NCBI GenBank assembly: GCA_016932415.1
Contig: JAFGCX010000011.1
Coordinates: forward strand, 104,115-168,114
From: Candidatus Krumholzibacteriota bacterium
GTDB taxonomy: Bacteria > Krumholzibacteriota > Krumholzibacteriia > Krumholzibacteriales > Krumholzibacteriaceae
Length of the DNA: 64,000 bases
Direction: 5' to 3'
A program made the translations under genes and the position numbers. Each line of letters starts with the position of its first letter. The first letter of the stretch is position 1. Positions 1-49,671 of this stretch are shown piece by piece. The notes under the pieces were generated by a model that saw only the letters and a list, made by a program, of their open reading frames with translations, was not told the DNA's origin and searched no databases.

Positions 1-969
1 TTTGAATTTTCCTTCGTCAAGATACTTCCCCGCTGCCGCTGTCATATCCGCGGGCGAAGGATCGACGGCGAGATCGAGGTTGTAACCGTATAGTGTCTTC
101 CCCGGCTGTTCGCGTGAGCAGAAGAGACAGCTGTTCGTGCAGCTTGAAGTTGGATTTATATAGAGCCTGTCGCCGATCGAATACGCCACGCTTGCAGGCA
201 GATCTCGCTCTCCATGCATCAGTCTGCGATAGTTCACCTCCGCGGCCCGTTCGATGTCGGAGACCCCCACGCTCCTGAGCCCGGCGAATTTTTCGGCGAT
301 GATCTTTACGTAGGCCGGTTCGTTCCTTTTTCCCCTGTACGGGACGGGCGTAAGGTAGGGACAATCCGTTTCGAGGACGAATCCAGAGGAAGGGAGCCTC
401 TCGACGATATCGGGAAGCTTCGAATTCTTGTACGTCAGCGGTCCGCCTATTCCCACAATAAACCCGAGTTCAAGTATCTTTGCCAGTTCGTCAGGCCCTC
501 CCGAGAACGCGTGGAATATCCCACCCGCTCGCGAAGCGCCCTCTTCCTCAAGTATCCTTACAAGATCCTCGAAAGCGTCCCTGCAATGGATGACTATCGG
601 TTTCGAAAACCGCAGCGCCAGCCCGATCTGCCTTCTCAACACATCCTGCTGGACATCTCTCGGGGAAAGGTCCCTGTAGTAATCGAGGCCGATCTCCCCC
701 ACGGCGAGGACTTTCTTTTTGAGAAGAAGAGGTTTGATCTTTTCCTCGAGAGAGGGAGACCAGTCGGTCGCGTGATGAGGATGTATGCCCGCGGCAGCGT
801 ATATTCCCGGATATTTTTCCGCCAGCGCGATCGTGGCGTCGATAGAGGAAGGATCATATCCAACGTTGAGGATCTCCCCTATCCCGGCCTTCCCGGCTCT
901 TTCCATCACTTCACCGAAGTCGTCCCTGAACTCGGACATATTGAGATGAGCGTGAGAATCAATCAGCAT
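1..969 (-). CDS. TatD-family metal-dependent hydrolase/DNase fused to a C-terminal radical SAM domain (C-terminus runs off the left window edge)
   Basis: Minus-strand frame is open from the ATG at 969 to position 1, checked codon by codon for 1-240. N-terminus MLIDSHAHL matches the TatD start. Translation continues past the TatD domain (~255 aa) into ...SIGDRLYINPTSSCTNSCLFCSRE..., a CxxxCxxC radical-SAM cluster motif. Absent from the ORF track only because there is no in-window stop. Start lies 8 nt after the metG stop. Confidence 0.8.
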   Translation of the reverse strand, partial: MLIDSHAHLNMSEFRDDFGEVMERAGKAGIGEILNVGYDPSSIDATIALAEKYPGIYAAAGIHPHHATDWSPSLEEKIKPLLLKKKVLAVGEIGLDYYRDLSPRDVQQDVLRRQIGLALRFSKPIVIHCRDAFEDLVRILEEEGASRAGGIFHAFSGGPDELAKILELGFIVGIGGPLTYKNSKLPDIVERLPSSGFVLETDCPYLTPVPYRGKRNEPAYVKIIAEKFAGLRSVGVSDIERAAEVNYRRLMHGERDLPASVAYSIGDRLYINPTSSCTNSCLFCSREQPGKTLYGYNLDLAVDPSPADMTAAAGKYLDEGKFK

Positions 970-976
970 ATCTCTG

Positions 977-2515
977 TCAATCCTTGAAAATATCTTCCGG
1001 ATCTTCCTGTATTCTCGGAAAAAGAGGGGAGGGCTGACTTATCTTTACCGCCGCGCAGCTTTTCGGAGGAAGATCGTCCAGCGAAAGGCCATCCTGACCG
1101 AGCTGCCCTGACAGCTCTTTCATGCGCTCCGGCATAAAGGGGGAAAGGACGACGGCCGAGCTCCTGAGCACGGCAAGCAGTTCCCTGAAAACCGCTTTCA
1201 ACTCCTCCTTTTTTGATTCGTCTTTCGCCAGAACCCATGGGCTTTTTTCCTCTATATACCTGTTCGCTCTCTGTATGACAGTCCAGAAAGCCCCTAGCGC
1301 CCTGGAGAATTCAAGGTTTTCCATATTCTCCCGGTATCCATCGAGAGCGGTGGCAAGATCTTCGTAAAGATCGTTGCGCGAATCGAAAGGCGCCTCGTCG
1401 ATATTCCCGCCAAGATATTTCGAGATCATCGCGAGGGTCCTGCTGGAAAGATTCCCGAGTTCGTTCGCCAGGTCGGCATTATATCTGTTTACCAAAATAT
1501 CGACAGATATATCCCCGTCCTTGTCGAACGGGACTTCCCTCATGAGAAGATACCGGAGAGGATCAGCTCCGAAGACTGCCGCCATCTTTGCCGGATCCAG
1601 AATATTTCCCCGCGATTTGCTCATCTTCTCCCCGGCGAGCGATATGAATCCGTGAGCAAAGACGCTTTTCGGCAGTTCTACTCCCGCGGCCATAAGCATC
1701 GAGGGCCATATTACGCAGTGGAACCTTGTTATATCCTTGCCGATCACATGAAAATCGGCGGGCCAGTACTTTTCGAATGCGCCGCTTTCTTCCCCGCCGT
1801 AATCGAGAGCTGAGATATAGTTGGTCAGAGCGTCGAACCATACATAGACGACATGACCGGGATCGATCGGGAGAGGGATCCCCCACGCTACTCCCGCTCT
1901 TGATATCGAGACGTCATGAAGTCCGCTCTTTATCACGTTAAGCACTTCGTTCGCCCTCGTCTTCGGCCTGATGAAACCTGGATTCTTCTCGATATGATCG
2001 AGAAGCGGTTTCTCGAATTTAGACAGGGCGAAGAAATAGTTCTCCTCGCTGATACTTTTCGGCGCCTGCTTGTGGCTGGGGCATAGCCCGTCGACCAGGT
2101 CTTTCTCGCTGATGAATTCCTCGCACGATTCGCAGTAGAGTCCTTCGTATTTTCCCTTATAGATATATCCATTCTCGTGGATCCTGGTGAACAGGCAGCT
2201 GACTGCCTTTTCGTGCCGCTTCTCCGTCGTATGTATGAAATCGTCGTACGAGATATTCAGTTTTTTCCAGGTCCCGGTGAATTCTTCCGACATGATCCTG
2301 CAATAATCGAGCGGTTCCATATCTCTTTTTCGAGCTTCGCGTTCGACATTTGTGCTGTGCTCGTCGTTGCCCATCACAAAATGCGTCTCGAACCCGCAGA
2401 GCCTTTTGTACCTTGCCATACAATCGGCCCCGATCTTTTCATACGCCGTCCCAAGGTGGGGTTTCTGGTTCACGTAGTCGATCGCAGTCGTGATATAGAA
2501 CCTCTTTTTACTCAT
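977..2515 (-). CDS. metG: Methionyl-tRNA synthetase (short form without C-terminal tRNA-binding domain)
   Basis: Class I aaRS with KMSKS and Zn-knuckle cysteines. Start moved to MSKKRFYITTAIDY (ATG at 2515), preceded by GGGAGAAGG. Track ORF extends to 2533. Confidence 0.9.
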   Translation of the reverse strand: MSKKRFYITTAIDYVNQKPHLGTAYEKIGADCMARYKRLCGFETHFVMGNDEHSTNVEREARKRDMEPLDYCRIMSEEFTGTWKKLNISYDDFIHTTEKRHEKAVSCLFTRIHENGYIYKGKYEGLYCESCEEFISEKDLVDGLCPSHKQAPKSISEENYFFALSKFEKPLLDHIEKNPGFIRPKTRANEVLNVIKSGLHDVSISRAGVAWGIPLPIDPGHVVYVWFDALTNYISALDYGGEESGAFEKYWPADFHVIGKDITRFHCVIWPSMLMAAGVELPKSVFAHGFISLAGEKMSKSRGNILDPAKMAAVFGADPLRYLLMREVPFDKDGDISVDILVNRYNADLANELGNLSSRTLAMISKYLGGNIDEAPFDSRNDLYEDLATALDGYRENMENLEFSRALGAFWTVIQRANRYIEEKSPWVLAKDESKKEELKAVFRELLAVLRSSAVVLSPFMPERMKELSGQLGQDGLSLDDLPPKSCAAVKISQPSPLFPRIQEDPEDIFKD

Positions 2516-2529
2516 CCTTCTCCCGATCG

Positions 2530-3414
2530 TCATTCGTCAAGATCTTCATCCTTGAATTTCTTGAGCAGTTCTTCCTCGTCAATGATCTCATCCTCGGGTT
2601 CTTCCTCGATCTCGCATATCCCGAGTTCTTCCCTGAATTTATCAAGAGATATCTCTATCGTATTGGCATCCTCGTCAGTAAGAGAGATCGTCTCGTTGAA
2701 CAGGTTGATCTTGTCCAGCCTGTGTCTCGATCCGAAACATTTTATCTTGCTCCCGACTTTCGGGATGTCCTTCATCAGTTCCATATAATCAGACAGTTCG
2801 TACGCGAGGCAGCACATGAGCCTCCCGCAGGCGCCGGATATCTTTGCCGGTGTCAGCGGCAGGTTCTGATCTTTCGCCATTTTGAGCGTCACCGGTTCGA
2901 AGTCCTTGAGAAAAGTCGAGCAGCACAGCCTGCGGCCGCACATCCCCATGCCGTCGAATCTTCGCGCTTCGTCCCTTACGCCGATCTGCCGCAGATCGAT
3001 CCTCGTCCTGAAAACAGAGGCGAGGTCCTTGACGAGTTCCCTGAAATCGATCCTGCCGTCCGAAGTAAAGTAGAAGGTGATCTTGTTTCCGTCGAACTGG
3101 TACTCAACGTCGACGAGTTTCATGTCGAGTTTATGGCTTTCCGCTTTTTCCTGGCATATCGAGAGAGCTTCCTTTTCCTTCTCCCTCACCTCTTTCATCA
3201 TCTCGAGATCTTTATCGGTAGCGTGCCGGACGACTTCTTTCGCGTTTACCGGGATATCCCTGGCATGTACCTGCGCGAGCGAGATTATAAGACCCATATC
3301 TTCACCGCGGTCAGCCTGAACTATGCAATAGTTACCTTTTCTGAGATAAAGGGCTCTTGAGTTTTTGAAATATTCTTTTCTTTGAGCTTTGAACTGGATC
3401 TCTACGATTTCCAT
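2530..3414 (-). CDS. ricT: PSP1-domain protein RicT/YaaT
   Basis: Very strong similarity to B. subtilis YaaT: DMKLVDVEYQFDGNKITFYFTSDGRIDFRELVKDLASVFRTRIDLRQIGVRDE, plus the conserved Cys cluster CGRRLCC...CGRLMCC. Confidence 0.85.
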   Translation of the reverse strand: MEIVEIQFKAQRKEYFKNSRALYLRKGNYCIVQADRGEDMGLIISLAQVHARDIPVNAKEVVRHATDKDLEMMKEVREKEKEALSICQEKAESHKLDMKLVDVEYQFDGNKITFYFTSDGRIDFRELVKDLASVFRTRIDLRQIGVRDEARRFDGMGMCGRRLCCSTFLKDFEPVTLKMAKDQNLPLTPAKISGACGRLMCCLAYELSDYMELMKDIPKVGSKIKCFGSRHRLDKINLFNETISLTDEDANTIEISLDKFREELGICEIEEEPEDEIIDEEELLKKFKDEDLDE

Positions 3415-3509: not shown

Positions 3510-4604
3510 CTAATACCACTTCCCTGCCAAATCAAGGAGGAGTTGGTCCCACATAAGTTCGACGTCGATGTTCCTTCTCAATCCCTGCGAGGCCAGATTC
3601 ACTTTTCTGATGTCGGCACTGATATCCCTTCCCGCGGCAATATCGATCAAGTCTTTTCCCAATTCCTTCCCCAGCGCCACTGCTTCGCGCGGCGGAAGAG
3701 CCCCGGCGTTGAAAAGCAGTACCTGCCGCAGAAGGGATGTCATTTCTTTCAGAAGCGCGGCGGTTTCTTCGCGCGTATATTCATCGGCCATGACCTCCGC
3801 CTCGCCAGGAATCTGGCGCGCCTTGCCTTCAATGACGAGCTTCAGCGCCTGGACGGCGTCATTTCGAAGCCTCAGAAACCTTTCGTCAAGAAAATCAGTC
3901 CCCCGGCGAAGATTTCCACCAGCCCGCAGAGCCAGTTCTCCCGCCTCTTTCTTTTCGACAGAATAGAATTTTTCAAGAAACTTCGCCGTCGTGCTCTCCG
4001 GAAGGTGATCGAATCTGATCTCCTGGCACCTGGAAAGGATCGTCGGAAGAAGCCGTTCGGGAAATTCGGTCACCAGAATAAGAACGGCCGACGAAGGAGG
4101 CTCTTCCAGAAGCTTGAGAAAAGCATTTTGCGCCTCGATTGTCGCCATGTGCGCCTCAAAAAGTATTACCGGAGAATATTTTCCCTCGAAAGGATGTTTC
4201 GACAGCGTCTCGACAAGCATCCTTATAATATCGATCCCGATGCTCCTCGCCTTGCTTCCGAACTCTCCCTTTTCGAAAAAATTCTCCCTTCTGCTTTCGA
4301 TGATCACCGGAAGGGTCTTCTCGACCGGTCCGGACGGAAGCGGATAGACAAGATGGAGATCGGGATACTCCAGCCTTCCCGCTTTCAGGCATGCCGGGCA
4401 TCTTTCTGCGGGGCACCTGTCCGGCGCGAGGCAGTTGAGTCTCGACGCGAGGGAAAAGGCGGCAAGTTCTTTTCCGGAACCTTCCGGTCCGGTAAAGAGA
4501 AGCGAAGACGGGATCTTTCCCGTCTCAAGCATCGTTGATATTATCTCCGCCTGCCTTTGCTGACCTTTCGCGATCAGCGAAGCTGCACCAAGGATATCGA
4601 TCAC
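3510..4604 (-). CDS. holB: DNA polymerase III delta-prime subunit
   Basis: AAA+ clamp-loader motifs (LLFTGPEGSGKELAA) and Zn-module CPAERCPACLK. Position upstream of ricT as in Firmicutes. Confidence 0.85.
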   Translation of the reverse strand: MIDILGAASLIAKGQQRQAEIISTMLETGKIPSSLLFTGPEGSGKELAAFSLASRLNCLAPDRCPAERCPACLKAGRLEYPDLHLVYPLPSGPVEKTLPVIIESRRENFFEKGEFGSKARSIGIDIIRMLVETLSKHPFEGKYSPVILFEAHMATIEAQNAFLKLLEEPPSSAVLILVTEFPERLLPTILSRCQEIRFDHLPESTTAKFLEKFYSVEKKEAGELALRAGGNLRRGTDFLDERFLRLRNDAVQALKLVIEGKARQIPGEAEVMADEYTREETAALLKEMTSLLRQVLLFNAGALPPREAVALGKELGKDLIDIAAGRDISADIRKVNLASQGLRRNIDVELMWDQLLLDLAGKWY

Positions 4605-35469: not shown

Positions 35470-36828
35470 TTATTTTCCTATACAAAACCGGCTGAAGATC
35501 GTTTCGAGCAGTTCTCCCGCTATCGACCGCCCCGTGATCTTCCCGAGCGCTTCTGCCGCTTCCCTGATCTCGAGGCTCATTATCTCCGCCCTGCCCTTCC
35601 CTTCGAGTTCTTCGAGCATCCTTTTCAGGCCTCGCGAGCACTCTTTCAGGGCCGCGGCGTGCCTCGAGCTTACCGCGCCATTTTCCCTGACTCTTTCGGC
35701 TATATCTTTCCTTATCGTGCCGGTGTGGATCATATCCCTGAGCCTGGAGATGTTCTCCCCCGTCTTTGCCGACACCTCTATCTCCGGCCCGCTTAGGCCA
35801 CGGTCCTCCGAAGCGATCACTACCCCCAGATCGCGCTTGTTGAAGACTATTATATGGTTCTTCTTCTCTATCCTGGCTATTTCCCTTTTCGTTTCCTCGT
35901 CAAGCCCGGCGCTGCCATCTACAACGAAGAGTATCAGGTCCGATCCTTCGGCAGCCTTCCTTCCGATCGATATTCCCCTCGCTTCGATCTCGCACCCCGT
36001 TTCCGCGATCCCCGCCGTATCTTCGAGAAAATATGTGAATCCGCCGATATGGATCCTTTCCCTGAGAAGGTCCCTCGTAGTCCCCGGAATAGCAGATACT
36101 ATAGCCCTTTCCTCACCCAGTAGCGCGTTGTAGATGCTGCTTTTTCCCGCGTTTCTCGGCCCCAGCACTGTCACCCTGATGCCCTGCCTGAGTTTTTTCC
36201 CGGCGATCTCAGACTCTATCATTCCTTCTATCTCGCCGATCGCTCCGTCGATATTCTCGCGAAGAATCTCACTGTCGTATGTCTCGATATCTTCTTCCGA
36301 AAAATCGATTGAAAGCTCGATCAGGGCAAGCTGCCGCAGGAGAATCGCCTCTATGTCTCCTATCTTTCTTGACAGCGACCCTTCAAGCTGTTCGAGCGCG
36401 ACGCGTCCCTGGAGCTTTGTCTCCGCCGATATAAGATCAACGACCGCTTCGGCCTGTGCCAGGTCGAGCTTTCCTTTCAGGTAGGCTCTTTTCGTGAATT
36501 CTCCCGGGCCGGCGATCTCCGCGCCAAGCCTGACCGCTTCTTCTATGATCGAGGAGTAGACGTAGATGCTTCCATGGCAGGATATCTCTATGACATCCTC
36601 TCCCGTATATGAATTCGGCGCAAACATCGCCGTGACGAGGACCTCGTCGATCTGTTCGCCGGTGGAATTTTTTATGATCCTTTTGTATACCCTGTGTGAT
36701 TCCCGGCGGCCAGCCGGATCCGCCATCGAATCGAGGATTCCGAGCGCGTCGGGTCCCGAGATCCTGATCACGGCTATTCCCGAGACTCCAGGCGGAGTAC
36801 TCAGGGCAACGACAGTGGTTCCGTCCAT
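35470..36828 (-). CDS. mnmE: tRNA modification GTPase MnmE (TrmE)
   Basis: G-domain motifs (GPRNAGKSS, DTAG), C-terminal CIGK motif. Confidence 0.95.
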   Translation of the reverse strand: MDGTTVVALSTPPGVSGIAVIRISGPDALGILDSMADPAGRRESHRVYKRIIKNSTGEQIDEVLVTAMFAPNSYTGEDVIEISCHGSIYVYSSIIEEAVRLGAEIAGPGEFTKRAYLKGKLDLAQAEAVVDLISAETKLQGRVALEQLEGSLSRKIGDIEAILLRQLALIELSIDFSEEDIETYDSEILRENIDGAIGEIEGMIESEIAGKKLRQGIRVTVLGPRNAGKSSIYNALLGEERAIVSAIPGTTRDLLRERIHIGGFTYFLEDTAGIAETGCEIEARGISIGRKAAEGSDLILFVVDGSAGLDEETKREIARIEKKNHIIVFNKRDLGVVIASEDRGLSGPEIEVSAKTGENISRLRDMIHTGTIRKDIAERVRENGAVSSRHAAALKECSRGLKRMLEELEGKGRAEIMSLEIREAAEALGKITGRSIAGELLETIFSRFCIGK

Positions 36829-36831
36829 ATT

Positions 36832-37533
36832 CTATTTTCTGCCAGACCGGTTCGATTTTCTCTCCCGGCCCTTGTCCGCGGAGACAAAGACCTTTCTCAT
36901 CTCCCCGTTCCCGACGGTATAAGTCGTTATCCCTTCCATCCCGGCGAGTGTCATATGGATGATACGCCTCTCGGACGCTTTCATCGGTTCGATTCCGACT
37001 TCCCTCTGCGTCTTTTTAGCTCTTTCGGCCGCTTTCTCAGCTTTCTGCCTGAGGATCTCCTGCCTGTTCTTCAGGTATCCGCCAACATCGACAGTCAACC
37101 TCTGGTATCCGCCCATCTTCCTCGACACGATCCTCCCGATCAGGTGCTGAAGCGAGTTCAGCGTGTCTCCCTTCCTGCCGATGAGCAGCCCGTCGACACC
37201 AGCCGTTTCTATATTTATATATGTCGAATCGTCTATCGTGTCAGAAAATATCCTGTACCCGACATCCAGCCCTTTCATTATAAGCCCGGTGACTTCGTCG
37301 GCTACCTCCTCTATCCCCTTCGATCCATTTTTCATCGACACCTTGACTCTCGCGCTCCTGGCGCCGAAGATCCCCAGGACCCCCTTCTGTCCGGGATCTA
37401 TTATCTCAATATCTACATCTTCTATTTTCGAACCAAGGTCTTTCAGCGCCTTCTCCAGCGCTTTCTCTACAGTCTTTCCCTCTACCTCTACCGGTCTGCT
37501 ATTTATTCTTTCCTGTCTCCCGTGCTTTTCCAT
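36832..37533 (-). CDS. jag: Jag/KhpB RNA-binding protein (Jag_N, KH, R3H)
   Basis: KH and R3H domain signatures. Canonical position between yidC and mnmE. Confidence 0.8.
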   Translation of the reverse strand: MEKHGRQERINSRPVEVEGKTVEKALEKALKDLGSKIEDVDIEIIDPGQKGVLGIFGARSARVKVSMKNGSKGIEEVADEVTGLIMKGLDVGYRIFSDTIDDSTYINIETAGVDGLLIGRKGDTLNSLQHLIGRIVSRKMGGYQRLTVDVGGYLKNRQEILRQKAEKAAERAKKTQREVGIEPMKASERRIIHMTLAGMEGITTYTVGNGEMRKVFVSADKGRERKSNRSGRK

Positions 37534-37657
37534 ATCTGTCTCTCCTGCATCTTTCTTTTATATCCCCGGCCCATCTTTTCCCGTCCGGCGCCGCTCTCGG
37601 GCGCTTCGCGCTGAGCCGTTATCGATATTTCCCCGGGGCTTTTTATCCGCCCCATTG

Positions 37658-39457
37658 CTATGCGGTTACTTCGCCTTCCGCCGCTTCGGTCTCTATCGCC
37701 TTATGTACATAATACTGCTGGACGATCGACAGTATGTTGTTGATCAGCCAGTAAAGCACCAGGCCCGAAGGCATTCCGTAAAAAATAAACGTAAATACCA
37801 CCGGCATCATCGTTGTCATCATCTTGGTCTGCGCTGCCGGCCCCGCGTCTCCAGTCGGAGAGCCACCCATCTTTGACTGGACGAACATCGCCACGCCCAT
37901 CAGAAGAGGAAGCAGGTGGAACTCGCTTCCGATGACAGGCAGGCTGAAACCAAACCCGAACAGGACGTCCGGCGATGAAAGATCATTGATCCACAACCCA
38001 AGGGGGGCGTCTCTGAGTTCAATCGTGTTTCTGAGAACGTTAAAAAGAGCTATGAAAACAGGCATCTGAAAAAGAAGAGGCAGGCATCCGCCAAGGGGAT
38101 TGACCCCCGCCTCCTTGTACATCTTCATCGTTTCCTGGTTCAGTTTTTCTTTTTCGTTCTTGTACTTCTCCTGCAGGGCTTTGAGTTTTGGCTGGAGCCG
38201 CTGCATATCTTTCATCGATTTGAAGCTCTTGTGCGTGAGCCTGTAGAACAGGACTTTCGTCAGGATCGAGAGTATTATTATTATCAGCCCGTAGTTGGGA
38301 ATGAACCCTTTCATCCACATCATCAGGCGAAGGACAAAAACGCTGAAAAATCGCATCTTGCCAAGCTCTATTGTCCTTTCCAGCCCTACTCCGTAATCCT
38401 TCAGCCCGTTCATGTCAAGAGGCCCGAAATAACATTTGAACGAATCTTCGACTTTTCTCGGGTCTCCCCGGAATGGATAAAATATCGAATACCCGGACAT
38501 GCTGCTGTCCTTGTCTCCGAGCATCTCCAGGACTCCCGAGCGCTGCTCGTCCACTATTACCGCGCTGAGGAAGTATTTGCTTCTCGCGCCGGCCCAAACG
38601 ACCATGCCTTCCTGGACTTTCCTGTCCGTTTTGCCGAATTTGCCCGAGCCCTCCTTATAATATTCATCCCCCACGCGCCCGAGCGAGGCCATCTGCCTTA
38701 TCTCCCATTTTCTGTCTTTCTCGTTCAGCGCCAGGCCGCTCTCCCACGCGATCGCGTACCCACTGGCCCCTTTCATCTCTCCCTCTCTTACCAGGGAGAT
38801 CGCCACGCCTACTTCGTAGCCCTCTCGCGAGAACCGGAACCTTTTTTCGACAGTCCCTCCCGAAGCCCCTCTCCATCTGAAGAGGACTGTCGCCTCGATG
38901 CTTTCTCCGGTCAGGTCGATCTCCTCACCGTCATAGATCTCTCTGCCGTTGACAAGAGCGTCAAACCGGGCGCCGGAAAAGCCGGTCCTCTCCATGTCTT
39001 TCTCAACGTAGAGGGAAAGAGCCCCCTTCGCCCCTTCGGGAACGAGCTCAACATCCCCTCCGTCGCTCCTGGCGAATTCCCTCAGCTTAATACTCGTGAT
39101 CTCCCCGCCGAGACTGCTCAGCGCGACTCTCATCTTCTCCGTAGCGACGGTAAAATTCCTTGTCTCCGCCGGATCATCAGGGGAAAAGAGCCTCCCCGTT
39201 CCCTCCCGCGCCTTGCTTTCGAAAAACTCCCCCTCCGCCTTTTCTCCGCCCGCCGGCAGATCCTCATCCGCGCCCTCCCTCGCGCTGTATTCCGATCCGG
39301 CCTCGAGGGAAGCGAGTGAATCGGCTACGGCCTGCTCGCGCAGTTCCACGGCTCTTCTGAGCGCCGCCTCTTTCTGCCTGGGCGCCACATAGAGCATCTG
39401 CCATCCGAGCAATATCGCAAAGGTCACTGCTATAGCCAGAATAGAGCGCTTATCCAT
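37658..39457 (-). CDS. yidC: Membrane protein insertase YidC
   Basis: Large periplasmic P1 domain followed by the conserved 5-TM core (LLTKVLFYRL...GVNPLGGCLPLLFQMPVFIALFNVL). Confidence 0.9.
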   Translation of the reverse strand: MDKRSILAIAVTFAILLGWQMLYVAPRQKEAALRRAVELREQAVADSLASLEAGSEYSAREGADEDLPAGGEKAEGEFFESKAREGTGRLFSPDDPAETRNFTVATEKMRVALSSLGGEITSIKLREFARSDGGDVELVPEGAKGALSLYVEKDMERTGFSGARFDALVNGREIYDGEEIDLTGESIEATVLFRWRGASGGTVEKRFRFSREGYEVGVAISLVREGEMKGASGYAIAWESGLALNEKDRKWEIRQMASLGRVGDEYYKEGSGKFGKTDRKVQEGMVVWAGARSKYFLSAVIVDEQRSGVLEMLGDKDSSMSGYSIFYPFRGDPRKVEDSFKCYFGPLDMNGLKDYGVGLERTIELGKMRFFSVFVLRLMMWMKGFIPNYGLIIIILSILTKVLFYRLTHKSFKSMKDMQRLQPKLKALQEKYKNEKEKLNQETMKMYKEAGVNPLGGCLPLLFQMPVFIALFNVLRNTIELRDAPLGLWINDLSSPDVLFGFGFSLPVIGSEFHLLPLLMGVAMFVQSKMGGSPTGDAGPAAQTKMMTTMMPVVFTFIFYGMPSGLVLYWLINNILSIVQQYYVHKAIETEAAEGEVTA

Positions 39458-39504
39458 CCCTGTATTTCCCTTCTATAAGAAGATGATAGGTTTATCGGGC
39501 TTTT

Positions 39505-39735
39505 TCAGCGAACAGGATCATATCCGCCACGGGAGAACGGGTTGCATTTCAGAAGCCGGACAACGGCCTTGCCGCTTCCCTTGAAGAAACCATATTTCTT
39601 CAGAGATTCTTCCGCGTATGCCGAACAGGAAGGTGTAAACCTGCAGACCGGTGCGTGGTACGGGGAAATCGATATTCTGTATATCCTGACGGCCGCCAGA
39701 CCGGCTTTAGTCAGAATCCTGGATATCATCCGCAA
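39505..39735 (-). CDS. yidD: Membrane protein insertion efficiency factor YidD
   Basis: YRISISPYHAPVCRFTPSCSAYAEESL signature. Overlaps the rnpA stop by 10 nt. Confidence 0.85.
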   Translation of the reverse strand: MRMISRILTKAGLAAVRIYRISISPYHAPVCRFTPSCSAYAEESLKKYGFFKGSGKAVVRLLKCNPFSRGGYDPVR

Positions 39736-40094
39736 CTTGATATCAGTCCGGCTCTCTTGAGAGAGCTCACTACATCTTCCGTGAGTTCCTGAAATGATGT
39801 CTCCTCAGGACGAAATGAGGCTATAAATACTATCCAGATATTTTTCTCGTTAATTCGGTCCTTGACTGTTCTGAATATTTCCCTCATCAGCCTTTTCGCC
39901 CTGTTACGCTGATAAGCCTTTCCAACGTTCTTTTTGCTGGCCACGAATCCCGGCAGAAGGCCCCTGTTCTCATCATCCCCCTCACCGTTTCTTCCCAGGT
40001 ACAGTATCGTGATCTTTTGCCCCGCCTCCCTTTTCCCTTCACTGTAGACGAGCCTGAACTGCCTGCTATTCTTTAGTCCTTTCATCGATACCAT
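39726..40094 (-). CDS. rnpA: RNase P protein component RnpA
   Basis: Basic 122-aa protein with an RNR-like motif region (AYQRNRAKRLMRE). Sits 21 nt downstream of rpmH. Confidence 0.85.
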   Translation of the reverse strand: MVSMKGLKNSRQFRLVYSEGKREAGQKITILYLGRNGEGDDENRGLLPGFVASKKNVGKAYQRNRAKRLMREIFRTVKDRINEKNIWIVFIASFRPEETSFQELTEDVVSSLKRAGLISSCG

Positions 40095-40115
40095 CGCCCG
40101 GGCTCATCCCGGAGG

Positions 40116-40250
40116 TCATACGGCCAGCCTCTTTCTTCCTTTTTCTCTTCTTCGCCTGAGCACTTCCCTGCCGTTCTTCGTGCTCATTCTTTTTCTGAAT
40201 CCGTGAGTTCTTTTTCTTCTCTTGTTATGAGGCTGAAATGTGCGTTTCAT
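40116..40250 (-). CDS. rpmH: 50S ribosomal protein L34
   Basis: Not in the ORF track (<60 aa). Reverse-strand translation [44 protein letters not shown] is a near-perfect L34. Confidence 0.9.
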
Positions 40251-40627
40251 TTTCTATCCTTTTCCATTCATTTCCATGCAGATAGAGGCCTTTGAATATA
40301 TATAAACAACTTACAATAGAAGTCCTCATCTTTTTTGTCAAGCATTTTATCTCTATCTTTTTTAACTTGTTTGTTTATCATTCTTTTCAGATCTTATCCC
40401 CGCCGGTAATCTTTCCATTTTTTCGTCTTCTCCGCCCTTAAGGTATCCCGCAAGCTTTATCTCCTTGCATTTCCATCAGTTAGAATTTATTCCACATTTT
40501 ATGTAAATAATTCTTGATATCGATTTTTCCGTATGATACATTTCCGCCTGCGGGATCAGGGGAGGGTTCGTTTTTAAGGGCTTCGCAGCCCGTTTCTTTT
40601 CTTTTTTGCTTCCCCGGTTTTTTTGAT

Positions 40628-40636
40628 TGTGGATAA
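40628..40636 (-). promoter_or_regulatory. DnaA box TGTGGATAA (perfect consensus, reverse orientation)
   Basis: Exact reverse complement of TTATCCACA. Confidence 0.7.
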
Positions 40637-40695
40637 CGTCATGACATCATATTGAAAACCCCGCCGCTAATGTTGTTATTATTAAAGTTATAGAG

Positions 40696-40715
40696 TTTTC
40701 CACATTTGTGGAAAA
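40696..40715. promoter_or_regulatory. Palindromic pair of near-consensus DnaA boxes TTTTCCACA-tt-TGTGGAAAA overlapping the TTG at 40706
   Basis: Two 8/9 matches to the DnaA box arranged as a 20-bp inverted repeat immediately upstream of dnaA. A likely autoregulatory site. Confidence 0.5.
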
Positions 40716-40774
40716 CAAGAAAGATTTTGAAAGCTGCCGGCCTTTCCGACGGACCGGTATCTTCGGTCATTGCT

Positions 40775-42130
40775 ATGAGACTAGAACAAGACCCTGGCAT
40801 CGACATATGGGAAACGATCCTCGACAAGCTTAAAAAGGTCGTAAACGCGCAGAGCTTTCAGACCTGGTTTGCCCCCACCAGGCTGGCCGGATATGAAAGG
40901 GGCGTCCTGCTGGTCGAAGGACCAAATTCGTTTTTCATCGACTGGCTCGCCGAACACCACATCGACAAGATAACCGAGGCCGCCTCGGAAGTCCTTGGCG
41001 AAAAAGTAGTTATAGAGTTTTCGTCTCCCTCTCCGCGCAGGACTGTCCGCGCGGAGAAGCCTGTTGAGCGCTCCGTACTTGTCAGAGAGCCGGTCATCCT
41101 TCCCAACAGCGTTCAACTCAACAGCCGATACACGTTCCAGGAGTTTGTAGTGGGAAACGAAAACCTCCTGGCTCACGCGGCGGCCCTCGCAGTAGCTGAA
41201 AAACCGGCCCAGACCTACAACCCCCTTTTCATCTACGGCGGCCCCGGCCTGGGAAAGACTCATCTTCTGCAGGCTATTGGCCATTTTGTCCTCGAGGAAC
41301 ATCCCGGAATGAGGATCTCGTATGTCTCGACCGAGAGTTTCATGAACGAGCTTATCCGTTCGATCAGAAACGGCGAGACCTTCGAGTTCAAGGAACGCTA
41401 CCGCAATATAGATATTCTCCTGATAGACGACATCCACTTTCTCGCCGGCAAGGAAAGGACGCAGGAAGAGTTTTTCTATACTTTCAACGCTCTCCACAAC
41501 GCCAGCAAACAGATCGTCTGTACGAGCGACCGGCCCCCGAAAGAGATCCCGTCACTTCAGGACAGGCTTACTTCACGTTTCGAGTGGGGTCTTATAACCG
41601 ACATCCAGCCTCCAGACCTCGAGACCAGGGTCGCGATCCTGCGCAAAAAGGTCGAAAAGGAGATAATGCCTATCCCTGAAAGCGTCATCTTTCTTATAGC
41701 GGAGAACGTAAGGGGAAATACGAGGGAGCTGGAGGGGTCGCTCGTCAAGATCCTCGCCTGCGCCAGCCTGACAAACCAGGATATCAATGTCGATATGGCC
41801 GGTGAGGTACTGAAAGTCTTTATCTCGGGAGCTGAGAAGAAAAAGATCTCTATAAAGTCGATACAGCGTGCTGTCGCGGCGGAATTCGACATCCCCGTAC
41901 ACACGCTTTCCGCCAAGACGAGGATGAGCCGCGTCGTTGCGGCGCGCCAGGTCGCCATTTTTCTTTCCCGCGAACTTACCTCTCTTTCGCTGGTGCAGAT
42001 AGGAAAAGGTTTCGGGGGCAGGGACCACAGCACGGTCCTGCATTCGATCAAAAAGATAGAAACATCCATTTCCGTCGACCCGTCGCTTGAAAGGCAGATA
42101 TCCGCTCTCAGAAAAGATCTTGAGACCTGA
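40775..42130 (+). CDS. dnaA: Chromosomal replication initiator DnaA
   Basis: Domain I (IWETILDKL...FQTWF), AAA+ Walker A GGPGLGKTHLL, sensor motifs, C-terminal HTH (KTRMSRVVAARQVAIFLSREL). ATG at 40775 preferred. The track's TTG start at 40706 overlaps the DnaA-box palindrome. Confidence 0.95.
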   Translation: MRLEQDPGIDIWETILDKLKKVVNAQSFQTWFAPTRLAGYERGVLLVEGPNSFFIDWLAEHHIDKITEAASEVLGEKVVIEFSSPSPRRTVRAEKPVERSVLVREPVILPNSVQLNSRYTFQEFVVGNENLLAHAAALAVAEKPAQTYNPLFIYGGPGLGKTHLLQAIGHFVLEEHPGMRISYVSTESFMNELIRSIRNGETFEFKERYRNIDILLIDDIHFLAGKERTQEEFFYTFNALHNASKQIVCTSDRPPKEIPSLQDRLTSRFEWGLITDIQPPDLETRVAILRKKVEKEIMPIPESVIFLIAENVRGNTRELEGSLVKILACASLTNQDINVDMAGEVLKVFISGAEKKKISIKSIQRAVAAEFDIPVHTLSAKTRMSRVVAARQVAIFLSRELTSLSLVQIGKGFGGRDHSTVLHSIKKIETSISVDPSLERQISALRKDLET

Positions 42131-42145
42131 TCTCTTACCGCCTCG

Positions 42146-42154
42146 TTATCCACA
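42146..42154 (+). promoter_or_regulatory. DnaA box TTATCCACA (perfect)
   Basis: Exact consensus 16 nt after the dnaA stop. Confidence 0.7.
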
Positions 42155-42294
42155 TCCTCGCTGTTTATAAAATGTTGATTCCTGTTGGTATCTTTTCCCA
42201 TGGGCATAATTGTTGAGATTTTCCACTTGTTCACACAAATGCCAACACCGCTTCGCCTCCTGCCGCTCGAGCCTGTTCTTGAACACTTGGGTGA

Positions 42295-42311
42295 TTATCC
42301 ACATATCCACA
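42295..42311 (+). promoter_or_regulatory. Tandem DnaA boxes TTATCCACA + TATCCACA
   Basis: One exact box and an adjacent 8/9 box in direct orientation. Confidence 0.7.
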
Positions 42312-42480
42312 CGCTCTACTCCTACTACTGATTCTATTAATTACACAATGTCTGTATAATACCTCCTGTTTATATTTTCCCTTTATTTTGTCTTGTACGC
42401 GTGTATAAATTCCCTTATGATTCACTTTCCTGAAGAATGAAAAATTAATACGATTCAGAAAGCCTGGAGGAGGTAGCGGA

Positions 42481-43590
42481 GTGAAGGTAGTTATCCCGCT
42501 TGAAGAACTGAGCAAGAAAATGAACGCCATATCAGGCGTTGTCCCCGCGAAAACAACGATGCCGATACTCTCCATGACCCTTATCAAGGCCGACACTTCG
42601 GGGATCTCCTTTTCAGCCACAGACCTCGATATCTCAGTGACTTCAAAGGTGAACGGGAAGGTCGATGAAGAAGGATTGATTTCCGTACCGGCAAAAAAAA
42701 TAGCCGAGATCGTGAAATCGCTCTCCCAGGGAGAGGTAACGCTTTCGTCGAACGAAGAGAACAAACTCACTATCAAATGCGGGAAAAGCAGGTTTTCGGT
42801 AAATGGAAGAAGCGCGGAGGATTTTCCAAAACTACCCAAACAGGAAAGCAAGGCTGAATTCTCGATCGATTCCGCGCTTCTCGGAAAACTCGTCCAGAAG
42901 ACACTCTACGCGGTTTCGACCGACCTTACCCGGCCCGCGCTATGCGGCGTGAAGTGGGAAATCGACAAGGGTGGAGTCCTGATGGTTTCTACAGACGGAC
43001 ACAGGCTCGCGAAGGCCGAAGTGAAACTGGCGCTCGGAGAGATAAAGAAATCGGAAGTGATCGTGCCTCCAAAAGCCCTTTCGACATTCAAGGCATACGC
43101 CCAGAAAGACGAGATGATCAGGGTCAACATCGGAGATAACAGCATATCGTTCGAGATGGACGAGGTGTCGATTTATTCGCGCCTTCTCGAAGGACCCTTC
43201 CCGAATTATCAGAAAGTGATCCCGGCAAACAACACAAGAGAGATGCTTGTATCGAAGGAAGCTTTGTCGATGGCAACGAAACGCGTATCGATTCTTTCCG
43301 ACGCGCTGACGCATCAGGTGATCTTTTCTCTCGGTAAAGACAATCTGAGGCTCCATGTGACGACGCAGGATCTTGGAGAAGCGACAGAGGATATCGACGC
43401 GACATACTCTGATGAAGAGATGGAGATAGGTTACAACGCCGCGTATATTCAGGATATTCTCAGAACTTTCGATACTGACGATATCGCATTCAATCTCGAC
43501 AGACCGGACAATGCCGGAATAATAAAACCGGTCGAACAAAGCGGGGAAATCAAACAGCTCTGTATCGTCATGCCTCTGAGAATTCTGTGA
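42481..43590 (+). CDS. dnaN: DNA polymerase III beta sliding clamp DnaN
   Basis: GTG start with GGAGGAGG SD 7 nt upstream, three-domain clamp homology, C-terminus MPLRI. Confidence 0.9.
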   Translation: MKVVIPLEELSKKMNAISGVVPAKTTMPILSMTLIKADTSGISFSATDLDISVTSKVNGKVDEEGLISVPAKKIAEIVKSLSQGEVTLSSNEENKLTIKCGKSRFSVNGRSAEDFPKLPKQESKAEFSIDSALLGKLVQKTLYAVSTDLTRPALCGVKWEIDKGGVLMVSTDGHRLAKAEVKLALGEIKKSEVIVPPKALSTFKAYAQKDEMIRVNIGDNSISFEMDEVSIYSRLLEGPFPNYQKVIPANNTREMLVSKEALSMATKRVSILSDALTHQVIFSLGKDNLRLHVTTQDLGEATEDIDATYSDEEMEIGYNAAYIQDILRTFDTDDIAFNLDRPDNAGIIKPVEQSGEIKQLCIVMPLRIL

Positions 43591-43620
43591 TATTATCAGA
43601 GGGAAGTGTGGTGAGCAGGG

Positions 43621-44730
43621 TTGATCATTAAAGATATAGAGTGTGTCAATTTCCGGAATATCGAAAAAGCCAGCCTGGAATTCTCCGACACTTTCAATAT
43701 CATCGAGGGAGCGAACGCTCAGGGGAAGACGAATCTTCTTGAGGCTGCGCATGTTTTTTCCCTTGGAAGGGGTTTCAGGACAAGAAGGACAGACGAACTG
43801 GTAAGGTTCGGTGAGGAATATTTTTTCCTTAAGCTTGCCGGAAAAAGCGATAACGACGTGGATTTCACGATCGAGTTCGGATATGAACGGGGGGGCAAAC
43901 CAAGAGTCTCGGCTAACGGAAACAGGCTTTCATCCCTGTCGGGGATGATCGGTATAATGCCGACAGTAATATTCACGCCGGGAGATGTCGAGCTTGCCTC
44001 GGGACCTCCGTCGCAAAGAAGATTATTCATCGATTATACCGCCGCGCAAATATCTCCGGCTTTCCTCTCGGACCTGGGTGAGTTCAGGAGGGTCTTGAGG
44101 CACCGGAACACCCTGCTCAGAAAGATTTCAAGCGGAAACGGGGAAAAGGAAGAGCTTGGCGCCTGGGACGAGATTTTTATAAGAAAGGGCGCTGCCCTGA
44201 CAAGAGGAAGGATCGAGGTTCTCAGGCAGATCGAGGAAGCAGCGAGGGAGATATTCGAGAGGATCAGGCCGGCAGGGGAAAAGCTCGGAGCCAGATACCG
44301 GGCGTCTTCCCGCGTCGGGAAGGATTCGATCGAGGAAGATCTCAGAGAAGCGCTTGGCAGGAACGCGGGGACTGAACAGAAACGCGGGTTTACGCTGACA
44401 GGGCCGCAGTATGACGATGTCGACCTGTTGCTTGACGAGGTGCCGCTGAGGAGGTTCGGTTCCCAGGGAAGAAAAAGACTTGTCGCGGTCGTTCTTAAAC
44501 TTTCCCAGGCGGTTGTGATCATGGAGAGGCGAGGAGAGAGGCCCGTAGTCCTTCTCGATGATATTTTCTCCGAACTGGACGCCGAAATATCGGGAAAAGT
44601 AAGAGACCTCCTGTCGGACAGGTACCAGAGCCTTATAACTTCACCCCGCAGCGGCGCTTTTTCGCCTCTGCCGGAGGGAGCGGCTGTCTTCTCTGTCGAA
44701 AAAGGCTCTTTCAGGCGCCTGAAGCAGTAG
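43621..44730 (+). CDS. recF: DNA replication and repair protein RecF
   Basis: TTG start (an in-frame TGA lies 3 codons upstream), N-terminus IKDIECVNFRNI, Walker A GANAQGKTNLLEA, SMC-like signature region. Confidence 0.9.
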   Translation: MIIKDIECVNFRNIEKASLEFSDTFNIIEGANAQGKTNLLEAAHVFSLGRGFRTRRTDELVRFGEEYFFLKLAGKSDNDVDFTIEFGYERGGKPRVSANGNRLSSLSGMIGIMPTVIFTPGDVELASGPPSQRRLFIDYTAAQISPAFLSDLGEFRRVLRHRNTLLRKISSGNGEKEELGAWDEIFIRKGAALTRGRIEVLRQIEEAAREIFERIRPAGEKLGARYRASSRVGKDSIEEDLREALGRNAGTEQKRGFTLTGPQYDDVDLLLDEVPLRRFGSQGRKRLVAVVLKLSQAVVIMERRGERPVVLLDDIFSELDAEISGKVRDLLSDRYQSLITSPRSGAFSPLPEGAAVFSVEKGSFRRLKQ

Positions 44731-44802
44731 TTACATGACCCTTTTTTGGGGGAGATTTTTGTTTATTTTTGAGGGCGGACGTAATAGAATGAAACCGCCC
44801 CG

Positions 44803-47054
<2,252 letters not shown>

Positions 47055-47151
47055 GAAAGAGATAATATTGCAAGGGGCTCTTTTTGCAGCTTTCCCTAAA
47101 GAGTGGCGGAAAGGGGTCTTCCCGAGCGGGACGCAGAGGAGGCGCTGATAG

Positions 47152-49671
47152 ATGGATTTAAGCAGGCAACGGGTCATACCGGTCTACATAGAAGACAAGA
47201 TGAAAAGCAGCTATCTCGATTACTCGATGAGCGTGATCGTTTCGAGAGCCCTTCCCGATGTCAGGGACGGGCTCAAACCGGTACACCGGCGCATACTGCT
47301 AGCGATGAACGACCTGAACCTCGCTCATAACAAGCAGTATAGAAAATCGGCAAAACTTACTGGAGATGTCTCGGGTAACTATCATCCGCACGGGACCGCG
47401 TCGGTCTATGGAGCGGTCGTGAGACTGGCCCAGGATTTTTCGATGAGGTATCCCCTGATCGACGGGCAGGGGAACTTCGGGTCTATCGACGGAGACGCCG
47501 CCGCGGCGGAAAGGTACACGGAAGTCCGTATGGAAGCGATCGCCGAGGAACTGCTCGCTGATATAGACAAGGAAACGGTCGAATTCGGTCCGAACTATGA
47601 CGAGACACGGCAGATGGCCCTGGTGCTTCCGTCGAGAGTCCCCAATCTTCTGATAAACGGAGCCTCGGGGATCGCCGTCGGGATGGCGACGAACATCCCG
47701 CCCCACAACCTGACGGAGATAACGAACGCTCTTAAAGCCCTGCTCGACGATCCCGAGATCAGTGACAACAAGCTTTACCGCCATGTTCAGGGGCCGGATT
47801 TTCCGACCGGCGGAATAATATACGGAAGATCGGGAATCAGTGACGCTTACAGGACCGGGCGCGGACTTATTACTTTGAGAGCCAGGGCGAATATAGAGAC
47901 ACAGAAGGGCGGAAAGACAAGTATTGTCATATCGGAGATCCCCTACCAGACGAACAAGTCGGCGATAATCGAAAAAGTCGCCGAGCTGGTAAGGGCGGGA
48001 AAACTTTCCGGGATATCGGATATCAGGGATGAATCGGACAAAGAAGGGCTGAGGATCGTAGTCGATCTGAAAAGGGACGCTTACCCGAAGGTAGTGCTGA
48101 GCCACCTCTTCAAGCATACCGGGCTGCAGGTGACGTTCGGTATAATCATGCTGGCTCTCAACAGGCTGCGCCCCGAGGTGATGAGCCTCAGGCAGATGAT
48201 GGCTTATTACCTCGAGCACAGGGAAGAAGTCATCACCAGGAGAACGAGGTTCGATCTCGCCCGGGCAGAAGAAAGGGCGCATATACTGGAAGGGTACAAG
48301 ATCGCCCTCGATAATATAGACGAAATAATCAAGCTGATCAAAAAGAGCGCTTCTCCGGCCGAAGCAAAAAACGCGATGATGAAAAAGTTCGCGTTGAGCG
48401 ACCTGCAGGCGCAGGCGATCCTGGATATGAAGCTGCAGAGGCTGACCGGGCTCGAACGGAAAAAGATTGAGGATGAGTACCTTGCCCTGATACAGAAGAT
48501 CGCCTATTTCAAATCGATCCTTGAGAACCGGAACATGCTTCTGGAGCTGATAAGGGAAGAGCTTGAAGAGTTGAAAGAGAAGTATGGCGACGGAAGGCGC
48601 ACGGAGATACTCGATGCCGACGGGGAAGTCAACCTCGAAGACCTTATCGCCGAAGAGGAGATGATCATCACCGTGACGCATTCGGGGTATATCAAGAGGA
48701 TCCCGGTCGGAACGTACAAGCGCCAGAAAAGAGGGGGGAAGGGGATCACCGGCATGGGGATGAAAGACGAGGATTTCGTCGAACAGATGTTCATCGCCTC
48801 CACCCACAGTTATATCCTTTTCTTCACCAATACCGGAAAATGCTTCAGATTGAAAGTACACGAGATCCCCCAGGGCGGCCGGCTTGCCAGGGGAAAGGCG
48901 ATGGTCAATTTCTTCCCGATGAGCCAGGACGAAAACATTACCGAACTTATACCGGTAAGCGATTTCGACAACGGTGACTATCTTGTAATGGTGACAAGGC
49001 AGGGGATAGTCAAAAAGACGGAGCTTTCAGCCTATTCAAAGGTCCACAGCGGCGGACTTATAGCTATCAAACTGCGCGAAGGAGACAACCTCGTAAGAGC
49101 CAAGCTGACTTCCGGGAACGACGATCTGATAATCGCCAAAAAGAGGGGAAAGCTTGTCAGGTTCAACGAGACCCAGATAAGGGCTGTCAATAGAGCGTCG
49201 ATAGGGGTAAAGGGAGTGACTCTTGAGAAAGATGACGAAGTCGTCGAAATGGTGATCGTCAAGAGAGAGTCAGACCTCTTCTTCATAACGGAAAACGGTT
49301 ATGGGAAACGTACCCGGATCAGCGAGTTCCGAAACACCAACAGGGGCGGCAAGGGCGTCATATGCATACAGACGGGAGAACGCAACGGCAATCTCGTGAC
49401 CTCGAGAGAAGTAGTGGAATCGGATGAAGTTATGATCATAACAAAGAGTGGGATGATAATCAGATCGCCGGTGACAGGAGTCAGGGTCGTTGGAAGGGCG
49501 ACGAAAGGAGTCAGGATAATCAACCTGAAAGACGGAGATAAAGTCGTCGACGTAGCCCTCGTCGCCGGAGGAAAAGTCGACGATGATGACGAACCTGAAG
49601 ATGATGTCACGGCGGCAGAAACAGAGGCAGAGGGCGAGGAAGAGGAAGCCGGCCTCGATCCGGAAGAATAG
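47152..49671 (+). CDS. gyrA: DNA gyrase subunit A
   Basis: Active-site region and QRDR (HPHGTASVYGAVVRLAQDFS), six-bladed C-terminal beta-pinwheel with GyrA box, acidic tail. Confidence 0.97.
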   Translation: MDLSRQRVIPVYIEDKMKSSYLDYSMSVIVSRALPDVRDGLKPVHRRILLAMNDLNLAHNKQYRKSAKLTGDVSGNYHPHGTASVYGAVVRLAQDFSMRYPLIDGQGNFGSIDGDAAAAERYTEVRMEAIAEELLADIDKETVEFGPNYDETRQMALVLPSRVPNLLINGASGIAVGMATNIPPHNLTEITNALKALLDDPEISDNKLYRHVQGPDFPTGGIIYGRSGISDAYRTGRGLITLRARANIETQKGGKTSIVISEIPYQTNKSAIIEKVAELVRAGKLSGISDIRDESDKEGLRIVVDLKRDAYPKVVLSHLFKHTGLQVTFGIIMLALNRLRPEVMSLRQMMAYYLEHREEVITRRTRFDLARAEERAHILEGYKIALDNIDEIIKLIKKSASPAEAKNAMMKKFALSDLQAQAILDMKLQRLTGLERKKIEDEYLALIQKIAYFKSILENRNMLLELIREELEELKEKYGDGRRTEILDADGEVNLEDLIAEEEMIITVTHSGYIKRIPVGTYKRQKRGGKGITGMGMKDEDFVEQMFIASTHSYILFFTNTGKCFRLKVHEIPQGGRLARGKAMVNFFPMSQDENITELIPVSDFDNGDYLVMVTRQGIVKKTELSAYSKVHSGGLIAIKLREGDNLVRAKLTSGNDDLIIAKKRGKLVRFNETQIRAVNRASIGVKGVTLEKDDEVVEMVIVKRESDLFFITENGYGKRTRISEFRNTNRGGKGVICIQTGERNGNLVTSREVVESDEVMIITKSGMIIRSPVTGVRVVGRATKGVRIINLKDGDKVVDVALVAGGKVDDDDEPEDDVTAAETEAEGEEEEAGLDPEE

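Follow-up and report, generated by a model that had tools for sequence, protein, structure and literature searches.

The 64,000-nucleotide stretch of Candidatus Krumholzibacteriota bacterium DNA analysed here (contig JAFGCX010000011.1, positions 104,115 to 168,114; hereafter the window) begins with the 5′ part of a minus-strand gene in which a TatD-type hydrolase is joined in frame to a radical S-adenosylmethionine (SAM) domain. We regard it as practically certain that this is one genuine gene, encoding a 464-residue two-domain protein composed of TatD and a TIGR04038 radical SAM (rSAM) domain; we refer to it as tatD-rSAM. Profile scores place the protein in TIGR04038 / IPR023821, the ‘TatD family nuclease-associated radical SAM protein’ family. 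Most of the species loci examined carry the fused gene, which is the common form of this moderately large family. The family, the fusion architecture and the exact protein are already in public databases, and the kind of object is already known. For its activity we tentatively prefer a two-step reaction on nucleic acid.

A TatD hydrolase and a radical SAM domain share one reading frame

The minus-strand frame opens with an ATG at 969..967, and AAGGA (985..981) lies 5′ of it as the likely ribosome-binding site. From there it runs for 323 codons without a stop to base 1 of the window. The features of this part of the gene are as follows.

1..969, minus strand: 5′ part of the tatD-rSAM fusion gene (codons 1-323 of 464), an open frame whose remaining 141 codons lie beyond base 1
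946..954, minus strand: HxH motif H6-A-H8 within MLIDSHAHL (DSHAHL being residues 4-9), read directly, the mark of TatD Group II
217..963, minus strand: predicted metal-dependent hydrolase domain of the TatD/YcfH type (Group II, HxH) at residues 3-251, from PF01026, TIGR00010 and a fold match
190..216, minus strand: interdomain linker HGERDLPAS, residues 252-260 (nine residues), between the end of PF01026 (251) and the start of TIGR04038 (261)
118..141, minus strand: CxxxCxxC [4Fe-4S]/SAM motif CTNSCLFC (C277-TNS-C281-LF-C284), read directly, the third Cys being preceded by an aromatic residue
1..189, minus strand: N-terminal third of the TIGR04038 rSAM domain (residues 261-323), aligned in the fragment to model positions 2-53 of 192

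A protein search with the window fragment returned a 464-residue protein (P0001) that is 100% identical to it. This is GenBank MBN2070766.1, ‘YchF/TatD family DNA exonuclease [Candidatus Krumholzibacteriota bacterium]’, encoded on a 188-kb contig of a metagenome-assembled genome. A Logan contig from a separate assembly (L001, run SRR13394437) is identical to the first 1000 bases of the window at 1000 of 1000 positions, across the domain junction, and it runs past the window edge, carrying the fusion gene to its stop. The missing 141 C-terminal residues were obtained from these two sequences. After the linker the protein reads ...YINPTSSCTNSCLFCSREQ..., a segment that contains CTNSCLFC, and neither a stop nor a frameshift was found in the frame at the junction (nt ~190-216). 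The 323-codon open frame, taken with the hidden Markov model (HMM) scores given below, is far beyond chance.

The sequence-only reading of the window had described a frame from MLIDSHAHL that is free of stops to position 1, a complete TatD domain fused in frame to a radical SAM domain, a gene directly after metG and a remainder lying off the window. All of this was borne out: the 323 codons are open, PF01026 is covered end to end, the radical SAM HMMs match and 141 further residues were recovered. The protein segment that it quoted is exact, with CTNSCLFC at residues 277-284 (nt 141..118), and TIGR04038, the accession that it had suggested, is the right one.

An AlphaFold2 (AF2) model of the full-length protein has a predicted local distance difference test score (pLDDT) of 91.9 and a predicted template modelling score (pTM) of 0.91, and the blocks covering residues 251-270, which span the linker, reach pLDDT values of 92-95. 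Our search found no solved structure that spans both the TatD and the rSAM halves.

The TatD half resembles housekeeping YcfH/YabD enzymes

PF01026 (TatD_DNase) aligns to residues 3-251 over model positions 1-252 of 253, with a score of 260.8 bits against a cutoff of 27 (E 1.6e-77), and TIGR00010 scores 244.8 bits against a cutoff of 206. The HxH motif defines TatD Group II, the group of YcfH and YjjV (PMC10085689). Among 52 fused homologues the metal-ligand residues E92, H128, H153 and D202 are invariant, while H6 and H8 are at least 90% conserved. The closest solved structures by sequence are Staphylococcus aureus YcfH (6l25/2gzx, E ~5e-63) and Thermotoga maritima TM0667. Superposition of the TatD half of the AF2 model on 6l25 with Foldseek gave a target-normalised template modelling (TM) score of 0.95 and a root-mean-square deviation of 1.6 Å at 42% identity. 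Judged by these features, the TatD half is a housekeeping YcfH/YabD-type orthologue with its predicted two-metal active site intact.

By analogy with its relatives, the TatD half may be a metal-dependent 3′-exonuclease and apurinic/apyrimidinic (AP) endonuclease, or a D-aminoacyl-tRNA deacylase. Escherichia coli YcfH acts as a 3′-exonuclease on single-stranded DNA and as an AP endonuclease on double-stranded DNA (PMC10085689). D-aminoacyl-tRNA hydrolysis has been reported for YcfH-type proteins including Synechocystis DTD3 (Wydau et al. 2009, in the summary given in PMC10711561). A TatD of the defence-system QatD type was ruled out: QatD scores 83 bits where 230 are required, and the gene lies among housekeeping genes in an origin-proximal setting.

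The radical SAM half is a compact core with conserved cluster and SAM motifs

The window fragment alone stays below the cutoffs for this half, with 12.1 bits for PF04055, of which 24 of 166 model positions fall in the window, and 42.2 bits for TIGR04038; even so, TIGR04038 is the top-scoring rSAM model for the fragment. The full-length protein passes both, scoring 60.4 bits against a cutoff of 29.5 for PF04055 and 201.1 bits against a cutoff of 129.7 for TIGR04038, the latter over model positions 2-191 of 192.

The three cluster cysteines are invariant in the 52 fused homologues and in 80 mostly standalone family members. The family also shows little or no variation in the G-x-G-E-P of FCGYGEP (a GGE-type SAM motif), the T-N-G of R(I/L)NTNG, and ISLNA. 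C328, just before the GGE-type motif, is a fourth invariant cysteine, and C397 (in LCRP) does not vary among the fused homologues and is mostly conserved elsewhere. Modelled alone, the half forms a bare partial β/α barrel of ~195 residues (pLDDT 93.4), with the domain ending at about residue 455. Neither a SPASM/twitch auxiliary-cluster motif nor a further domain was found in it with Pfam and NCBIfam, and its cysteines outside the cluster motif are only C328 and C397. Profile matches in the Protein Data Bank (PDB) are marginal (TYW1, PflA, MoaA and RlmN, E 1e-4 to 1e-2). The half is a minimal PflA-like core with one [4Fe-4S] cluster motif and a fourth invariant cysteine beside the GGE motif, and is predicted to be a radical SAM enzyme, which would cleave SAM to a 5′-deoxyadenosyl radical.

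At residue 299 (nt 73-75) the family has a near-invariant Trp (NLWL), but the window protein and its close fused relatives have Asp or Asn there (NLDL/NLNL). The substitution is specific to this clade and affects a conserved site close to the cluster loop.

The fused form predominates across species

One genome per species was scanned with the rSAM domain profile, which gave at least 596 confirmed relatives; counts of fused, split and standalone loci, and of their neighbours, refer to the best 80 of these. Proportions of fused to standalone forms were taken from the species loci and from a search of 50%-identity protein clusters. TatD and rSAM occupy one open frame, with the junction spaced as in the window protein, at 62 of the 80 loci. 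The two genes are split and adjacent, in the order tatD then rSAM, at five, and at one further locus tatD lies 3.8 kb from rSAM. Ten loci have an rSAM gene without TatD within 5 kb, and two are cut by a contig end. Among 1.84 billion 50%-identity representatives, 521 clusters match at E <= 1e-30. Within the top 150 of these, about half have the fused length of 440-490 residues. More than 100 protein clusters of 458-470 residues share the in-frame architecture.

The number of fused loci, and the 521 clusters with about half of the top 150 at fused length, show that the architecture is not an accident of assembly. One could propose that neighbouring tatD and standalone rSAM genes were merged here by an assembly error or a frameshift, given that the window comes from a metagenome-assembled genome and that split, adjacent versions exist in other lineages; but this is effectively refuted, to the point of being negligible, by the agreement of a second assembly across the junction, the stop-free frame, the recurrence of the same in-frame architecture and linker length in 62 of 80 species and in those clusters of 458-470 residues, and the high confidence with which the junction is modelled. 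The fusion is also less unusual than the sequence-only reading had implied, being the common form of a catalogued family whose exact representative here is already in GenBank.

Hosts among the matches listed are anaerobic or microaerophilic and include Krumholzibacteria, Planctomycetota, Zixibacteria, Omnitrophota, Elusimicrobia, Nitrospirota/Thermodesulfovibrionales, Nitrospinota, Desulfuromonadales/Geobacteraceae, Acidobacteriota, Bacteroidota, Chlorobiaceae and Bacillota. A neighbour-joining tree of the rSAM domain scatters the split and standalone forms among the fused ones: Bacillota group in a clade that is largely unfused, and the standalone copies of Chlorobiaceae and Geobacter lie inside the fused Desulfuromonadales. 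This interspersion implies that fusion or fission occurred more than once.

At the loci where tatD and rSAM are separate neighbours (L016, L038, L043, L081 and L082) the order metG-tatD-rSAM is kept. ksgA lies downstream of the split pair in L043 and L082, a YabE-like DUF348/G5/3D gene is directly downstream in a five-locus cluster exemplified by L038, and in L081 the tatD and rSAM frames overlap in different frames. Long frames in L014, L058 and L067 held no additional Pfam domain that would point to a further fusion partner. Two partial metagenomic members, P0126 with PF12804 (MobA-like nucleoside triphosphate transferase) and P0132 with PF00291 (pyridoxal phosphate-dependent enzyme), may represent additional, rare fusions or else run-ons of gene calling.

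The fusion gene occupies the ancestral place of tatD

Upstream of the fusion gene, on the same strand, lie the following genes, identified as open reading frames (ORFs) and through Pfam matches on the identical genes of L001.

977..2533, minus strand: metG, methionyl-tRNA synthetase (518 residues; Pfam tRNA-synt_1g / Anticodon_3)
2530..3414, minus strand: PSP1/RicT-like gene (Pfam PSP1)
3510..4604, minus strand: holB, DNA polymerase III delta′ (Pfam DNA_pol3_delta2)

The full minus-strand order is an ftsE-like ATP-binding cassette ATPase gene, ftsX, an M23 peptidase gene, holB, the PSP1/RicT-like gene, metG and tatD-rSAM. The metG stop codon (TGA, 979..977) is separated from the tatD ATG by a 7-nt spacer, which makes it likely that metG and tatD-rSAM belong to the same transcription unit.

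Three ORFs on each side of the 80 loci were clustered in a neighbourhood census, supplemented by tblastn. The recurrent upstream families are metG (29 of 80 by clustering, 34 of 80 by tblastn), PSP1 (18 of 80) and holB (16 of 80). Downstream, ksgA recurs at 11 of 80 loci by clustering or 15 of 80 by tblastn, and a DUF348/G5/3D YabE-like gene at 5 of 80; scattered signalling proteins are also found among the neighbours. In Bacillus subtilis the neighbourhood of the unfused yabD is holB-yaaT ... metS-yabD-yabE-rnmV-ksgA. As the neighbourhood of the fusion gene is that of this unfused yabD, the TatD half is the housekeeping YcfH/YabD orthologue at its ancestral location, with the rSAM domain added on immediately behind it.

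The census revealed no rSAM-specific neighbour other than TatD. Standalone rSAM copies have inconsistent neighbours (DUF3792, transporters, histidine kinases and one QueD). In three Desulfotomaculaceae/Peptococcaceae genomes (L002, L033 and L046) a divergent standalone rSAM lies beside a DUF3792 membrane-protein gene, which may reflect shared lineage, not function; in L046 a PTPS/QueD gene lies ~600 nt downstream of the standalone rSAM.

The sequence-only reading had also called for the contig to be extended leftward. Past window base 1, L001 carries a 135-residue ORF with a C-terminal zinc ribbon and weak Pfam matches only, followed by ksgA/rsmA, three ORFs without a Pfam match, a polysaccharide deacetylase gene and pdxJ. 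At least two related loci, L008 and L009, lack the 135-residue ORF and have ksgA within ~20 nt of the fusion gene. A search past the window edge for a partner that might account functionally for the fusion thus gave none, the first ORF being unconserved at its position and the next being ksgA. The stretch from the 135-residue ORF through the three ORFs after ksgA is L001 11403-15959; those three encode 655, 188 and 197 residues, and ORFs of ~640-680 and ~196 residues recur downstream of ksgA in L006, L009 and L029, a conserved block in Krumholzibacteria-like genomes.

What the fusion may do

The catalytic motifs of both halves are intact and conserved, and the linkage between rSAM and TatD is tight and evolutionarily repeated. 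Since domains joined by fusion normally share a substrate, we tentatively lean towards an enzyme that works in two steps, its rSAM and TatD sites acting sequentially on one nucleic-acid substrate, a mechanism that we infer and hold with less than even confidence. The rSAM half would reductively cleave SAM, and the resulting 5′-deoxyadenosyl radical would attack DNA or RNA where it is damaged or modified, or at a 3′ end, and remove a hydrogen atom from a base or sugar there. The altered site would then become cuttable by the attached TatD, through phosphodiester hydrolysis of the 3′-5′ exonuclease or AP-endonuclease type. Such an enzyme would be functional in anaerobes only, where the cluster survives. 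Within this two-step scheme, an RNA substrate or an rRNA or tRNA end and a DNA lesion are about equally likely.

Several observations weigh against a two-step nucleic-acid enzyme. The ten rSAM loci without a nearby TatD lie in unrelated contexts, so that TatD in cis may not be a strict requirement for rSAM. The structural matches of the rSAM half are all to the generic rSAM core, at 11-21% identity, and the best of them is PflA, whose substrate is a protein. With a median isoelectric point of ~6 and a net charge of -2, the rSAM domain is not basic and offers no obvious large nucleic-acid-binding surface. Full-text literature searches turned up neither functional work on TIGR04038/IPR023821 nor a substrate for any member, just one passing mention in a bioinformatics preprint.

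The first alternative is translation quality control, which we consider unlikely. TatD would be a D-aminoacyl-tRNA deacylase of the DTD3 type, acting on the ester at the tRNA 3′ end, and rSAM would act on the same tRNA or aminoacyl-tRNA; the aminoacyl moiety or the terminal nucleotide might, for instance, undergo a radical modification or chemistry of the epimerisation type. The metG-tatD-ksgA order might seem to point this way, but it is ancestral for unfused TatD too and holds nothing specific to rSAM; likewise, the similarities to TYW1 and EpeE are generic core matches. It also counts against this proposal that we know of no radical SAM enzyme that acts on aminoacyl-tRNA.

Distinctly unlikely, in our estimate, is small-molecule chemistry, in which rSAM, like viperin, MoaA, QueE and BlsE, would act on a nucleoside or nucleotide as a free metabolite and the amidohydrolase-fold TatD would hydrolyse the product or precursor instead of a nucleic-acid polymer. 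Against it, the TatD half is an ordinary housekeeping YcfH orthologue, a type for which nuclease activity is documented, and biosynthetic or salvage genes do not recur nearby, the QueD neighbour being a single case.

The resemblance of the rSAM half to PflA raises a further alternative, that rSAM acts on a protein, as an activase or modifier of TatD or of another protein, or that its oxygen-labile cluster serves mainly as a redox or O2 switch gating the nuclease. We find this rather more doubtful. The unfused YcfH/YabD enzymes of aerobes are active without such a partner (PMC10085689), and the fused TatD domains carry no glycyl-radical-type motif or other oddity. The SAM-binding motifs are strictly conserved, although a pure sensor would not need them, and standalone rSAM genes exist far from tatD.

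Returning to the two-step nucleic-acid enzyme, a bolder form can be put forward, although we think it improbable: TIGR04038 would be an unrecognised radical SAM nucleic-acid enzyme of anaerobes paired with the YcfH/YabD hydrolase, either converting a lesion before excision by TatD or carrying out chemistry at the tRNA 3′ end together with DTD3-type deacylation. In the lesion variant, the target would form preferentially without oxygen, and radical reversal or conversion would precede excision by TatD. If true, this would finally give a physiological substrate to an enigmatic, near-universal, metG-linked TatD paralogue.

TatD proteins of the YcfH/YabD type are among the most conserved bacterial proteins without an agreed physiological role, and 3′-exonuclease, AP-endonuclease and D-aminoacyl-tRNA deacylase activities have been reported for them. 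The rSAM domain is the fusion partner of TatD in at least several hundred anaerobic species. Because a fusion partner usually shares the substrate, the substrate of rSAM would give a function to an orphan family of 521 clusters at 50% identity and constrain the role of the TatD paralogue.

Other features of the window

The window also contains the chromosomal replication origin region (35470-49671), where gene orientation and GC skew both switch.

35470-36828, minus strand: mnmE
36832-37533, minus strand: jag
37658-39457, minus strand: yidC
39458-40705: 1.25-kb gap between yidC and dnaA
40706-42130, plus strand: dnaA
42481-43590, plus strand: dnaN
43621-44730, plus strand: recF-like gene
45141-47054, plus strand: gyrB
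47152-49671, plus strand: gyrA-sized ORF

Across the whole 64 kb, ARAGORN found no tRNA genes and no Rfam family reached its gathering threshold.

Comparison with known systems

The YcfH/YabD-type enzymes (E. coli YcfH, 1yix; S. aureus 6l25/2gzx; T. maritima TM0667, 1j6o) share the fold, the HxH motif and the metal ligands with the window protein, and the same genomic place, after metG and before ksgA, with its TatD half. The characterised members are single-domain proteins of ~255-265 residues, none with a radical SAM domain, whereas the window protein is fused.

Spore photoproduct lyase (4fhc), a radical SAM enzyme of DNA repair, is similar in concept only: it has ~340 residues with its own DNA-binding elements and no nuclease fusion, and shows no specific sequence similarity to the window protein. 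PflA (3c8f), the smallest well-studied rSAM core, has 17% identity to the rSAM half and, in contrast to it, is fused neither to its substrate nor to a hydrolase. A glycyl-radical activase of the PflA type was rejected as an identity for the rSAM half, with no activase model among the NCBIfam matches at E <= 0.01 and no glycyl-radical enzyme gene in the locus; the likeness is one of structure only. The nearest other rSAM family is TIGR04100 (‘rSAM_pair_X’, an uncharacterised hypothetical equivalog), which matches over the whole domain; its 153.5 bits fall short of the 262-bit cutoff, membership was ruled out, and the family offers no lead to a function.

The name of TIGR04038 already records the link to TatD, and its model spans only the rSAM half; NCBI applies the name to standalone and partial members, and the GenBank name of MBN2070766.1 mentions the TatD half only, which obscures the rSAM domain. 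The window protein is no different in kind from this family, and a specialist would not be surprised by its architecture. What the present analysis adds is the fusion as the majority form, a TatD half that is the metG-linked housekeeping orthologue, a census with no other rSAM-linked gene and a minimal PflA-like rSAM core with its fourth invariant cysteine. It presents no new kind of system; it shows TIGR04038 to be a clean and tractable orphan family.
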